From IMG/VR virus record IMGVR_UViG_3300045988_038444, positions 1 through 43,689 of that record: a stretch of DNA of 43,689 bases; one strand, written 5' to 3'. The notes beneath the pieces are model-generated. The model was not told the origin of the DNA and did no database searches. It was given only the letters and a program-made list of their open reading frames with translations. Shown here in pieces: positions 20,760-32,901 of this stretch. Numbering within the stretch: position 1 is the first letter of the stretch; every line of letters begins with the position of its first letter. Both the position numbers and the translations under genes were made by a program. Source of the stretch: a virus (lineage: Duplodnaviria; Heunggongvirae; Uroviricota; Caudoviricetes).

Positions 20760-21184
20760 TGATTAAACCTCACCATTATTCCGGCTTTTAATATAGCACG
20801 TTCGACAAACCCGGAAGGTGTCTGTGTACTGCTACCACCATTGAGAACCCCAATGTAAGGAACGTTGTTAGTAATATGCAGTTCCTGACCATTAACTTTA
20901 ATACTGCTGATAGTGACTGTATCCTGTTCGATACGTGCTTTACTGGCTTCAACATTACCTGTTGGTGTATCAGGACTATTAGCGGGTTGCCCCTGATCGA
21001 ACCACCAGTTGTTGCTTGCCCAGCCACTCAATATTGGTGTACCATCAGGAGGCTCACTTATGAGTATGTTACGTAGTGTTAAAACATATCTAATGACTTG
21101 ACGATCCGTAAAATCTTGTAAGTCGGCTTTTATGTCTTTAAACACTCCAGTAATACGATTTATATCATTGATTTTGCTAGTCAT
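20756..21184 (-). CDS. neck protein (HK97 gp10-like head-tail joining)
   Basis: The start is taken at MTSKINDIN (ATG 21184). The track start at 21250 would run into the divergent endonuclease gene. Function called on synteny. Confidence 0.45.
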   Translation of the reverse strand: MTSKINDINRITGVFKDIKADLQDFTDRQVIRYVLTLRNILISEPPDGTPILSGWASNNWWFDQGQPANSPDTPTGNVEASKARIEQDTVTISSIKVNGQELHITNNVPYIGVLNGGSSTQTPSGFVERAILKAGIMVRFNQ

Positions 21185-21206
21185 TGACAAACCTAAAGGT
21201 AGAAAA

Positions 21207-22103
21207 ATGGGCGGTAAAAGACTAACCAAAGAACAACTAGAGCATAACATAAAAGATATTTGTCAATCAAAAAATTACAAATTTATAAAATGGAAAGACG
21301 GGTTTAAAAACAAAGAATCACGAATTATTTTATCTTGTGTTACACACGGGGAATGGGACACTAAATGTTATCATTTTTTGAATGGTTCTGGTTGTCCGAT
21401 CTGTGGTGGAACACGAACCACAAAAGGGTTAAGAATTGCACAGATTAAAGACAGTTTAACAAATTCTAAATCAAAGTTTATTAAATTTAAAACTAATTTT
21501 CAAAATGGAAATTCTGTTTGTTTGCTGAGCTGTATTGATCATGGTGGATGGGAGACAACAGTCAATAGACTAATCTTTACATCTGTTGATTGCCCGTTGT
21601 GTATAACGAATAGACAGAAAACTAAACAAGAACGAGAAATTGAAATAACAAATAGATGTAAAGAAACAGGGTTGTTTTTTAATAAGATATTCGACGAACA
21701 TCCGACATGGAAATCTAAAATATCATTAAAGTGTTCAACGCATGGTGATTTTGTTACAACAATTAATTCTTTTCTTAGTAAACAAAAAGGTTGTCCAAAC
21801 TGTAGTAAAACAGGGTTTAAAGCTGGTAAGTATGCAACACTTTATGTCTTGCGGTCCACATGCGGTCGTTACGTTAAAATAGGTATCAGTAATTGTGTAG
21901 AGCAAAGAATTAATACACTTCGTAGAAAAACACCATTTGATTTTCAAGTAATAGAAAAATTGAATGGACACGGGGCAACCATTCGTTCACTTGAAAAAGA
22001 TTTTCATTCTCATTTTGAATCTGCAGGATTAACCGGGTTCGATGGTTGTACAGAGTGGTTAAAATGGAATCCAAATATAACCACTCTGATACGGATGTTA
22101 TAG
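21207..22103 (+). CDS. T5orf172 (GIY-YIG-related) homing-endonuclease-like protein, second family member
   Basis: Three Cys/His modules (CVTHGEW...GCPICGG; CIDHGGW...DCPLCI; CSTHGDF...GCPNCS). The C-terminus reads ATLYVL...VKIGISNCVEQRINTL...CTEWLKW. Strongly AT-rich. Sits antisense between two neck genes. Confidence 0.75.
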   Translation: MGGKRLTKEQLEHNIKDICQSKNYKFIKWKDGFKNKESRIILSCVTHGEWDTKCYHFLNGSGCPICGGTRTTKGLRIAQIKDSLTNSKSKFIKFKTNFQNGNSVCLLSCIDHGGWETTVNRLIFTSVDCPLCITNRQKTKQEREIEITNRCKETGLFFNKIFDEHPTWKSKISLKCSTHGDFVTTINSFLSKQKGCPNCSKTGFKAGKYATLYVLRSTCGRYVKIGISNCVEQRINTLRRKTPFDFQVIEKLNGHGATIRSLEKDFHSHFESAGLTGFDGCTEWLKWNPNITTLIRML

Positions 22104-22888: not shown

Positions 22889-22927
22889 GTGATCACCTGT
22901 GAGAAATGTTTTCGTTATATTAGCACG

Positions 22928-22953
22928 AAAAAAAGCCGTCTTAAACAGACGGC
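22928..22953 (-). terminator. strong intrinsic terminator ending the non-coding segment (minus strand)
   Basis: On the minus strand: GCCGTCT-GTTTA-AGACGGC followed by T7. Confidence 0.75.
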
Positions 22954-23459
22954 AAATGGCTCTGGGTGATAATGAGGGTTTTACATAACTGGTCATCCAC
23001 ACCTGACGTCCCAACATACCCCTATGCGTGACACGTGAATAACCAGTTATGTAAAACGACACGCAGTTCAGGATGTTTCACAACATGCTTTACCCACGAT
23101 TTGCGGCTTTCCCGCCAGCAAGATAAGGATCACCTCCTTATCAGCGAGTGTTTGGGTTGTGGCGGTTGGAATCGAACCAACTCCCATCGGTGCGATTCCA
23201 ACCGCAGTACGCGCAGCGGTCCGCTACATGACTAGTATTTTCACGGTCGCCTATCTGCTAGCTCGCCATTGAGCTTCACCACAACGGAAAGAGCACTGGA
23301 ACTTGGGCTGAGTATTACCGCATGTCTTTCGACTTCGAACCAAGGCTGACATTACCCAATGCTCTTACCTGTTATGTGCCGGTTACGTTTATCCGGCGTC
23401 TTTCGACCGATTAAGTGATAGTGTCTGCTATGCAGTTCTGTCACTGACTTAACAATAGG
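22954..23459 (-). ncRNA. candidate large structured non-coding RNA (function unknown)
   Basis: About 500 nt with no credible ORF on either strand. Contains many perfect hairpins, GAAA loops and a tRNA-like module, and is bounded by a gene stop and a terminator. See findings. Confidence 0.35.
23158..23283 (-). other. tRNA-like module (non-canonical, 126 nt)
   Basis: On the minus strand: acceptor TGTGGTG/CGCCACA (7 bp, one G-U), D-arm GCTC-AATGGC-GAGC, T-arm GTTGG-TTCGATT-CCAAC. There are 78 nt and no 5-bp/7-nt anticodon arm between the D-arm and the T-arm. Confidence 0.3.
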
Positions 23460-23813
23460 TCAAGAATAGTTATATGTCAAGCCTTGTGATTCACACCATT
23501 TAGCAGCGGCACTTTTACTACTAAACGATTCTGAATTCATCGGCATACCCATAACATAAACATTATAGGTTTTTGGCGCATCACGTCGGATTTCAGCCGC
23601 AGTGGTTGATGCCGATTCTTCGGTTGCTACAGTCACTGGTTCTTCAACGGTCGCAGTAGCTGGTTCAATGTGGCGCATACGCACAAGGGCGTTTAAAACA
23701 GCCGGGGTAGCTTTTGATGTTGATACTTTATCGCCAGCGGACATCTGTTTACCGTTCCACAGCATCGGACGGGTGAAAACATATTTCAGTGACGGATCAT
23801 ATGAATTACGCAT
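23460..23813 (-). CDS. hypothetical protein (117 aa)
   Basis: The start is taken at MRNSYDP (ATG 23813, RBS GAGG). The track start at 23867 runs through the capsid-gene terminator. Confidence 0.55.
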   Translation of the reverse strand: MRNSYDPSLKYVFTRPMLWNGKQMSAGDKVSTSKATPAVLNALVRMRHIEPATATVEEPVTVATEESASTTAAEIRRDAPKTYNVYVMGMPMNSESFSSKSAAAKWCESQGLTYNYS

Positions 23814-23828
23814 GATTTTAACCTCATG

Positions 23829-23855
23829 AAAAAAGGGGCAGCATAAGCCACCCCT
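23829..23855 (-). terminator. intrinsic terminator after the major capsid gene (minus strand)
   Basis: On the minus strand: AGGGGTGGC-TTAT-GCTGCCCCT followed by a T-run. Confidence 0.65.
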
Positions 23856-23875
23856 TAATGATATCACAGTTGTTA

Positions 23876-32556: not shown

Positions 32557-32901
32557 ATGTTATTCGCTATTTTATGGGTTCTTTTCTCTCTGATTATCGC
32601 GGGTGTTGCCAAACAAACGGGTCGCAACCCTGGTGCATGGTTCTTTATCGCATTTCTCACAAGTCCTGTGATCGGTGGTCTGATTCTGTTAATCGCATAT
32701 CTGTTTAACGGTAAGGTCGTAAGGGAACAACCGAAAGTGGTAACCACGGGGATGTTTAGTAACTACCTTGCAGCCTATAACTATGTTAATGAACATTACA
32801 CCATTGATACTGACTACCGGGCAGAAGCAGCCAGTGACCTGTTTAAGTATGCTACCTGTCGCGAGGACTGTGATAAACTGATCGCGAAGTACGTTAACTG
32901 A
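32557..32901 (+). CDS. membrane protein (two N-terminal TMDs)
   Basis: MLFAILWVLFSLIIAGVA...AWFFIAFLTSPVIGGLILLIAYLF followed by a soluble tail. RBS AGGAGG. Confidence 0.6.
   Translation: MLFAILWVLFSLIIAGVAKQTGRNPGAWFFIAFLTSPVIGGLILLIAYLFNGKVVREQPKVVTTGMFSNYLAAYNYVNEHYTIDTDYRAEAASDLFKYATCREDCDKLIAKYVN

Follow-up and report, generated by a model that had tools for sequence, protein, structure and literature searches.

Strong Shine-Dalgarno (SD)-type tracts that start no real gene are known as 5' stabilizers of mRNA, as in the STAB-SD of Bacillus thuringiensis cryIIIA and the polypurine stabilizer of phage SP82, both of them simple sequences that lie close to the 5' end in mRNAs of Gram-positive bacteria and that are thought to pair with the 3' end of 16S rRNA. 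SD tracts are also sequestered within structured RNAs, such as the expression platforms of riboswitches and RNA thermometers of the ROSE and fourU types. An SD tract ahead of a very short ORF is found in the tnaC and ermC leader-peptide attenuators and in the lambda bar minigenes, the latter being an AUG with one sense codon (AUG-AUA-stop). The ROOL and GOLLD RNAs are associated with phages and tRNA genes. They are large, ornate RNAs (PMC12286853), and the put RNA of phage HK022, of about 70 nt, forms two long stems, sits immediately after early promoters and binds the zinc-binding domain of the RNA polymerase beta' subunit (PMC9378689).

The locus described here lies in a phage genome of 43,689 nt, the whole of which was analysed and is referred to as the window, and it contains a 14-nt complement of the 16S rRNA 3' end. 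We find that this 14-mer is one strand of a conserved, folded phage RNA module and not a stand-alone ribosome binding site (RBS). Like the STAB-SD elements, the module has a strong SD-type tract that starts no real gene and lies on putatively untranslated RNA; unlike them, the tract here is about 305 nt from the predicted 5' end, within a covarying three-hairpin fold, and belongs to enterobacterial phages. The position near a transcript 5' end that marks the STAB-SD elements was not found, the lambdoid copies being internal to a late mRNA. With the SD-sequestering RNAs the module shares a constant SD-like strand, masking anti-SD strands, conserved junctions and GNRA-capped helices, followed by a terminator or a gene start, but it has no real gene start at SD distance, its tract is at least about 70 nt from the downstream genes, no ligand or temperature logic was identified, and the module has no Rfam match. 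Like the attenuators and bar minigenes it combines an SD tract with a very short ORF, the product of which is irrelevant, upstream of a terminator or gene start, whereas its start codon is lost in one subgroup, the ORF varies in length and a comparison for conserved alternative pairing found none. The likeness to ROOL and GOLLD is that the module lies, here and in Jeduna, within a highly structured predicted non-coding RNA of about 500 nt and has tRNA genes (for tRNA-Ser, in Carvaje and VLCpiS10a) or tRNA-like parts beside it; in contrast, the hosts are Enterobacterales, the conserved unit is about 95 nt and usually lies inside an mRNA, and the Rfam covariance models of ROOL and GOLLD gave no match. 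Like put, the module is a protein-independent structured RNA of phages with terminators further along its operon, but by its description put (PMC9378689) is set apart from it: the module has three hairpins, occurs in late regions and in some cases lies antisense to the neighbouring genes.

The 16S-complementary tract and its genomic setting

The window is a Sashavirus/9NA-like siphophage genome with 99% identity to Salmonella phage Sasha over this region, and the genes around the site are on the minus strand. A gap of about 570 nt, devoid of any conserved ORF, surrounds the 14-mer. The upstream neighbour is a small gene of unknown function (23460-23867, PHROG 19242) that follows the major capsid gene, and the downstream neighbour is a 136-aa head-tail gene (ATG 22888, PHROG 21889) that has an RBS of its own and is preceded by a terminator. 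The features of the gap are the following.

23452-23480, minus strand: promoter-like site TTGACA-17-TATTGT, a consensus match only, inside the 3' end of the upstream coding sequence
22928-23445, minus strand: putative non-coding transcript of about 518 nt, its predicted ends given by the promoter-like site and the terminator
23156-23409, minus strand: tRNA-like mosaic segment, upstream of the core module and outside its conserved part
23127-23140, minus strand: the 14-mer TAAGGAGGTGATCC, exact complement of 16S rRNA nt 1529-1542
23122-23142, minus strand: clade-specific hairpin GATAAGGA-GGTGA-TCCTTATC, from minimum-free-energy folds
22979-23056, minus strand: 78-nt palindromic insert with perfect 15-nt terminal inverted repeats
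22928-22953, minus strand: predicted intrinsic terminator GCCGTCTGTTTAAGACGGC with a T run, a consensus match

The terminator is kept in 9NA, SP069, Sasha, Carvaje and VLCpiS10a. The 518-nt segment has a minimum free energy of -194.9 kcal/mol (z = -6.5 versus shuffles) and, together with the covarying module described below, this supports the suggestion of the first-pass annotation that the tract might be part of a larger RNA fold. The gap is a mosaic, in that Sasha, PJ16, 9NA and SP069 differ in the inserts upstream of the 14-mer, and the 78-nt insert, between the core and the terminator, is missing in 9NA and SP069. Three elements are common to these relatives: the terminator, the ACCCAGAGCCAU box and the stretch that begins with the 14-mer and runs to ...CUGAACUGCGU. 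The tRNA-like mosaic contains an acceptor-like stem (GUUGUGG/CCACAAC), a D-like hairpin and a T-arm-like element (GUUGG-UUCGAUU-CCAAC) at 23165-23181. The T-arm-like and acceptor-like pieces, at 23153-23285, go no further than a likeness: ARAGORN found no tRNA or tmRNA gene in the window (0 genes), no Rfam tRNA model matched, and the match to the beta_tmRNA model reached 11.6 bits versus 84, so that tRNA or tmRNA identity was rejected. The tRNA-like mosaic also occurs in Seszw, HK75 and PhAPEC5, with no core nearby. A candidate second copy of the core in the window, at 32662-32762, was discarded, with an E value of 1.2 and a position within a coding ORF.

The perfect 14-nt complementarity that was first noticed by eye holds up. 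TAAGGAGGTGATCC, which reads GGATCACCTCCTTA on the plus strand, was assigned by BLAST against the rrnB operon of E. coli K-12 as the complement of 16S nt 1529-1542; it is the sole match with E < 0.01 between the whole non-coding region and that operon, and it is unique in the window even with up to two mismatches. By simple arithmetic, about 3e-4 exact 14-mers would be expected by chance in 2 x 43.7 kb. The runner-up among contiguous complements of the 16S tail in the window is 9 nt long, and 8 nt are complementary in the downstream gene's RBS (AGGTGATC, 22891-22898). Close relatives keep the 14-mer: it is perfect in 9NA, SP069 and PJ16, as well as in Bas82, 536P12, BDX09P1, PDP46 and AVIO78A, which are 100% identical over the stretch. 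The complement is cut to 11 nt in Sasha (GACCC) and is 10-11 nt in the Carvaje/VLCpiS10a group, and the full 14-mer is confined to the 9NA/Sasha clade. The sole part kept family-wide is the 3' part, GGUGAUC, in which conservation reaches 90% or more at each of G51, G52, U53, G54, U56 and C57. The canonical core, GGAGG, is variable, GGAUGG, GGCGG and GGGGG being common. The median contiguous 16S complement across the family is 7 nt, and complements of 10-14 nt occur in several separate subgroups, those outside the 9NA/Sasha clade being 10-12 nt. In the Jeduna variant, GGUGGUC (A-to-G), a G.U pair with 16S U1532 would remain.

The tract was originally described as half-buried in a hairpin. That hairpin, G-ATAAGGA-GGTGA-TCCTTAT-C, is present, with 8 bp, in the minimum-free-energy folds, and the tract is indeed half-masked in predicted folds, but the hairpin is specific to the 9NA/Sasha clade and is missing from the Carvaje-like, Jeduna and lambdoid copies (loci L005-L012 among them). 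Its 3' arm, UCCUUA, is identical in sequence to the 16S 3' terminus. Since this arm, downstream, and CACUC, upstream, are both able to mask the 14-mer, the tract in this clade is flanked by two potential masking strands.

A covarying RNA module

The 14-mer consists of the purine-rich strand of a helix, P1, and the start of a conserved linker. Both belong to a module of about 95-110 nt with the order, 5' to 3', P1, GGUGAUC-N3-6-AUCUUGCUG, P2, AA, and P3 enclosing P4. Its parts in the window are as follows.

23058-23166, minus strand: core module, P1, linker, P2 and P3/P4, matched by the covariance model at full length
23146-23157, minus strand: candidate upstream strands of P1, from the model alignment, by-eye comparison of variants and modest helix statistics
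23116-23131, minus strand: conserved linker GAUCCUUAUCUUGCUG, containing the UUG at 23119-23121; family consensus GAUC-N3-6-AUCUUGCUG
23103-23115, minus strand: P2 hairpin GCGG-GAAAG-CCGC, from the alignment and compensatory changes
23058-23098, minus strand: P3, CGUGG/CUGCG, enclosing P4, from the alignment and covariation
23073-23086, minus strand: P4 hairpin AUGUU-GUGA-AACAU with a GNRA loop
23068-23121, minus strand: UUG-started ORF of 17 codons, MLAGKPQIVGKACCETS, its peptide not conserved

The covariance model R1 was built from 16 lambdoid copies only, without any 9NA-like sequence, and it matches the copy in the window at 23058-23166 on the minus strand over model positions 1-95 of 95 (38.5 bits, E = 1.9e-5) and finds 97 copies among the collected loci. 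In the alignment fitted to R1, 93.5% of the cells are paired, versus 79.6% when shuffled and 24-53% with slid partners, and 17 of the 22 pairs change on both sides; because this alignment is fitted to the model and its members are related, the shuffle statistics overstate significance and are not to be read as probabilities. RNAalifold, applied to an unfitted MAFFT alignment, recovered P2, P3 and P4 with compensatory changes, and P1 was absent from this prediction. The consensus of P2 is ACGG-GNAAG-CCGU, with the stem variants ACGG/CCGU, GCGG/CCGC, ACAG/CUGU and GCAG/CUGC, and P4, which is AUGUU/AACAU here, becomes ACGUU/AACGU in 9NA, ACGUA/UACGU in the Proteus phage and ACAUU/AAUGU in locus L305. 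Compensatory changes in P2 and P4 are seen in 9NA, Jeduna, the Proteus phage and loci L305 and L315. P3 encloses a short helix in addition to P4, and its U.G and G.U pairs would be mismatches on the opposite strand, which argues that the functional strand is the one that carries the SD-like tract.

In the model, P1 is formed by ACCC (23154-23157) with GG..GGU, and CACTC (23146-23150) can alternatively pair with G(A)GGUG. The common form in the family is ACCCC-GNRA-GG(AU)GGU, with the GGU of the tract paired within it. Covariation in P1 is modest, with three pairs varying on one side and two on both. In copies whose 5' flanks are unrelated, the strand complementary to the tract differs: beside the common ACCCC it is ACCUC, CACCU, GUCAC or CACC, and CACUC in this phage. 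P1 as GCAAG/CUUGC was rejected, being unsupported by the variants CCGGC and CUGGC. A candidate pseudoknot, P0, would join the segment 5' of AACCCC to that between P4 and the 3' strand of P3; it is good in Jeduna (CUGUUGU/ACAACAG) and conflicts with P3b in the lambdoid copies, and a pairing scan over all alignment columns gave phylogenetic noise only. A CsrA site was rejected on the grounds that common variants have no GGA, as was rRNA mimicry by the core (23S H71-like CGGGUAAG and 16S ~1073 UGUUGUGAAA), these being 8-10-mers at chance level. No family of Rfam 15 matches the core in any version, and besides beta_tmRNA the sub-threshold matches were to mir-2076, suhB and STnc560 (E = 0.36-2.6).

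Distribution and contexts of the module

Pattern scans place the module in well over 120 viral contigs, among them 9NA/Sasha-like, Carvaje-like, Jeduna, P22-like and lambdoid phages and prophages. A BLAST search with 95 nt around the 14-mer found the block in Klebsiella Carvaje-like phages and, at 76-78% identity from AGGAGG onward, in Jeduna myophages and a Proteus P22-like phage. An exact-pattern scan of IMG/VR with the P2 region gave at least 120 contigs, and among the matches listed there were 108 distinct variants, mostly from lambdoid/P22-like prophages, where the block has the lysis genes on one side and the terminase on the other. From three of the four pattern scans came at least 120 contigs each, mostly true copies, and because three of the four fixed conserved tracts, the collected set is biased. 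Where short tracts served as the anchor, most matches were unrelated contigs of high GC content. A species-level genome scan gave prophage copies in Enterobacter, Yersinia, Serratia, Buttiauxella, Cedecea, Dryocola, Citrobacter and Trabulsiella, and the covariance model confirmed 19 of its 21 matches. Literature searches by motif sequence and by topic found no description of the motif.

The gene contexts differ between the five phage groups, and some copies are opposite in strand to their flanking genes. In Jeduna the block is antisense to the flanking baseplate genes, has its own promoter-like site and terminator, and includes a helix-11-like insert (Rfam SSU model, E = 1e-7), and in BUCT_49532 the ORF of an HNH endonuclease ends within the block. 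This mobility of the module across unrelated phages and different contexts, in one case beside an HNH endonuclease gene, suggests a self-contained function. When 123 distinct downstream contexts were compared, a gene began no more than 60 nt away in 89 of them (at 1-35 nt in most lambdoid copies), and an intrinsic terminator followed within 200 nt in 24. The genes that follow are of many kinds, among them PHROG 6581, PHROG 571, the terminase small subunit and an HslV-like peptidase. No partner gene or tRNA gene recurs consistently among the family members, and a general link to tRNA genes was rejected, the tRNA-Ser gene adjoining the module only in Carvaje and VLCpiS10a. Upstream of the lambdoid copies, internal to late mRNA as they are, no sigma-70-like promoter was found.

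Provided that this RNA is produced and that the module has a function, the module would be a widespread unannotated structured RNA in lambdoid, P22-like, 9NA-like and Jeduna phages. In these well-studied groups most non-coding elements are believed to be known already. The module also accounts for gene-free gaps that have been filled with spurious ORFs, for example gp42 of 9NA, which starts inside P4.

Proposed role and alternative explanations

We tentatively propose, giving it somewhat less than an even chance, that the module may be a masked docking site for the 16S tail that acts in cis on untranslated late RNA. Specifically, the GGUGAUC tract would be kept for pairing with the 16S 3' tail, that is, for docking of the 30S subunit or the ribosome, and docking would be partly masked by the flanking strands; the 9NA/Sasha clade has extended the tract to a 13-14-nt complement. 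The effect would be exerted in cis on untranslated late RNA and would not be protein production: on docking, or on brief initiation, the ribosome would open P2/P3, and this opening might either protect the untranslated RNA or set the downstream fate, which is a terminator here and a gene start in most lambdoid copies. That GGUGAUC is constant while the strand that pairs with it varies is a pointer to 16S pairing, as are the G.U pair that the Jeduna variant would keep and the 10-14-nt complements of several separate subgroups. The variable GGAGG core, the median complement of 7 nt and the pairing of GGU within P1 in the common form weigh against the proposal. The idea of ribosome docking or of a sponge, raised in the first-pass annotation, may hold, its one pointer being that GGUGAUC is both conserved and able to pair with 16S rRNA. 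A 16S-complementary tract without a conserved ORF would be a testable contact between ribosome and RNA beyond protein initiation, for which the candidate outputs are stability, anti-termination, coupling and ribosome targeting.

GGUGAUC could also be kept for a partner other than 16S rRNA. We consider it somewhat unlikely, while giving it real weight, that the SD-likeness is incidental and that the tract is kept for the fold or for a non-ribosomal partner such as a ligand, as for a riboswitch-like aptamer whose expression platforms vary, an RNA-binding protein of phage or host or, for a put-like antitermination RNA ahead of a late-operon terminator, RNA polymerase. An architecture of three GNRA-capped hairpins, with junction nucleotides that do not vary, would suit such a partner, as would the variety of downstream platforms, the existence of a UUG-less subgroup that keeps the whole fold followed by a terminator, and the fact that GGAGG itself is unconserved. 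In the 9NA-like phages, moreover, the module is followed by a strong terminator, and expression of the tail genes requires readthrough past it. Against this, there is no associated ligand, protein or consistent neighbour, the neighbours being diverse PHROGs of unknown function, and by eye no consistent antiterminator/terminator pairing, or other alternative pairing of the terminator, runs across the terminator-type members. By-eye comparison, without covariation, gave an 8/9 complement between the J4/3-P3 strand and the 5' arm of the terminator in the L203 subgroup, and a 7/8 complement between the 5' strand of P2 and the terminator arm in the 9NA-like phages. A cis-acting antiterminator fits poorly with the Jeduna RNA, which lies antisense to the operon around it and has a terminator of its own at its end, and put itself is a different structure, with two long stems in about 70 nt downstream of early promoters (PMC9378689).

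An alternative that we regard as unlikely, though still as a serious rival, is that the tract is a working RBS for the UUG mini-ORF (MLAGKPQIVGKACCETS here, MLTGKP-stop in most members), with the peptide irrelevant and with translation, or a pause at the Pro-stop, opening P2/P3 and so controlling the downstream terminator or gene start. The mini-ORF itself is real in the sense that TTG 23121-23119 does open a short frame, of 17 codons ending at 23068 and not of the 16 first counted, and the ATG ORF of 39 codons (23187-23068) that had been noted to read through the site is the same frame started further upstream. In most family members a UUG lies 4-6 nt past GGUGAUC, and in one group a hairpin inserted in this spacer may preserve the effective distance. 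Most members have a six-codon ORF that typically crosses P2 and ends, Lys-Pro-stop, at a UAA just past it, and gene starts or terminators lie close downstream of P3. However, a UUG separated from GGAGG by 11 nt is a poor start in terms of SD spacing. Among the matches listed, and in contigs that were picked by the common 5' motif only, 9 of 121 have UGG, CGG or UAG in place of UUG and no other start, so that a short ORF is not found in all members; the module is intact in them, with scores above 105 bits in the two that were scored (L194 and L203). The ORF is 6, 9, 10, 12, 17 or more than 25 codons long, the longer forms being found where the closing pair of P2 is G-C or where P2 is swapped for another hairpin, a replacement that in some members leads to unrelated ORFs. 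The closing base pair of P2 also switches the stop codon on and off (UAA/CAA), covariation in P2 swaps Pro for Leu and Thr for Ala, and in the 9NA/Carvaje clade the variable sites are chiefly non-synonymous, with a change at codon 13 that tracks the pairing of P4; the substitutions follow pairing and not codons. The varying length, the loss of the start and these pairing-driven substitutions indicate that the peptide is not under selection, and a conserved micropeptide was ruled out on these grounds. The earlier suggestion of a switchable RBS for a micropeptide is consequently unsupported as a conserved function. No start at SD distance with an ORF conserved in the relatives was found, nor does any conserved small ORF with normal spacing explain the 14-mer.

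A broader form of the docking proposal, which we hold to be rather improbable, is that the module would define a new class of phage RNA that tethers the 16S 3' tail, and with it the 30S subunit, to non-coding phage RNA. Its large forms, of about 500 nt in the Sasha/9NA-like phages and Jeduna, would be joined to interchangeable look-alikes of host RNA, a tRNA-like arm here and a copy of 16S helix 11 in Jeduna. If this were true, the module would be a non-coding RNA directed at the ribosome and not the leader of an mRNA.

That the late RNA acts in trans, as a sponge or targeting RNA that titrates or re-programmes 30S subunits through the 16S tail, perhaps with the help of its host-RNA-like parts, we consider very improbable. 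The 13-14-nt complement has a predicted duplex energy with the 16S tail of about -22 kcal/mol, the Jeduna copy would be a stand-alone RNA gene with its helix-11-like insert, promoter-like site and terminator, and a tRNA-like module adjoins the core in the window; yet stoichiometric titration of ribosomes by a single phage RNA seems implausible, the half-masking of the tract in predicted folds speaks against it, most members have a 7-nt complement only and are embedded in mRNAs, and the host-like inserts are variable and missing from most copies. Finally, a chance match, or an ordinary RBS of the neighbouring annotated gene, for which the annotated start of 9NA gp42 56 nt downstream of GGAGG might be cited, can be practically dismissed, given the chance expectation above and the conservation of the match across genera, with the gp42 start being a GTG inside the P4 loop, its ORF lost in the relatives, and the real start, ATG 22888, having an RBS of its own.

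Elements flanking the core motif

The core motif, the structured RNA module that holds the anti-16S 14-mer, is preceded by a mosaic of tRNA-like pieces and is followed, ahead of the predicted intrinsic terminator, by a palindromic insert.

23156-23409, minus strand: tRNA-like mosaic segment with an acceptor-like stem (GUUGUGG/CCACAAC), a D-like hairpin and a T-arm-like element
23165-23181, minus strand: the T-arm-like element, GUUGG-UUCGAUU-CCAAC
22979-23056: palindromic insert of 78 nt, the ends of which are perfect inverted repeats of 15 nt (TTTTACATAACTGGT)

No tRNA was called in the mosaic segment by ARAGORN or Rfam. Pieces of it recur with ~90% identity in unrelated phages, namely Skatevirus Seszw, HK75, where they lie between tR' and the holin gene, and PhAPEC5, where a tRNA-Ile is nearby. 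Several Klebsiella phages match pieces of it at 95% or more over ~100 nt; the core motif is not present at any of these loci. The palindromic insert is carried by Sasha-like phages and is missing from 9NA and SP069, and there is no second good copy elsewhere in the window.

16S-like sequences in or near the RNA

Two stretches resemble 16S rRNA itself, one in Jeduna phages and one in the window.

L007 1622-1668 and L006 1621-1667 (loci of Jeduna phages SBP and ZCEC13): 16S helix 11-like insert, inside the stem GUUGUGGUG...CCACAAC, 3' of the core
23197-23207, minus strand: CUGCGGUUGGA, identical to 16S nt 1521-1531

The Jeduna insert matches the Rfam SSU model (E = 1e-7) and E. coli 16S 254-282 (29 nt at 86%), and its stem shows compensatory changes; at the same stem site, other Jeduna phages carry different inserts. 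In the window, 57 nt separate CUGCGGUUGGA from the anti-16S 14-mer downstream of it, and in a homologous hairpin of the Jeduna RNAs (L007 about 1383-1396) the sequence is UGCGGUUGGUCACC. Because its BLAST E-value is 0.45, the identity of CUGCGGUUGGA to 16S may be due to chance.

Lambdoid and prophage copies

The motif copy of locus L198 has a different hairpin in place of P2, and the isrJ sRNA about 2.3 kb upstream of it suggests a Gifsy-like prophage.

L198 239-315: isrJ sRNA (Rfam, 60.8 bits)

In some lambdoid copies (L019 9580-9780, and also L017, L093 and L198) a further conserved non-coding stretch lies 3' of the core. It contains ...GUCGCAG.AUCUCU... and GUUGU...ACAAC stems and is similar to the stem module that Jeduna and Sasha-like phages have beside the core. 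Longer forms of the motif family may exist.

Endonuclease-like genes and the start of gp42

L009 940-1521, motif strand (Klebsiella phage BUCT_49532): HNH endonuclease ORF, directly upstream of the motif
21132-22103, plus strand: 323-aa ORF with CapR and T5orf172/MUG113 (GIY-YIG-related) domains

In BUCT_49532, the HNH ORF takes the place of the RNA's 5' portion and ends at a stop codon within the conserved linker. The 323-aa ORF of the window, which runs opposite to the structural genes, looks like a free-standing homing-endonuclease-like insertion into the head-tail gene cluster.

The annotated start of 9NA gp42 (YP_009101212; L002 1272) is a GTG in the P4 hairpin loop, with a strong terminator downstream. 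The true start probably lies about 135 nt further downstream, at an ATG that has an RBS of its own and that is the start annotated in Sasha and SP069.
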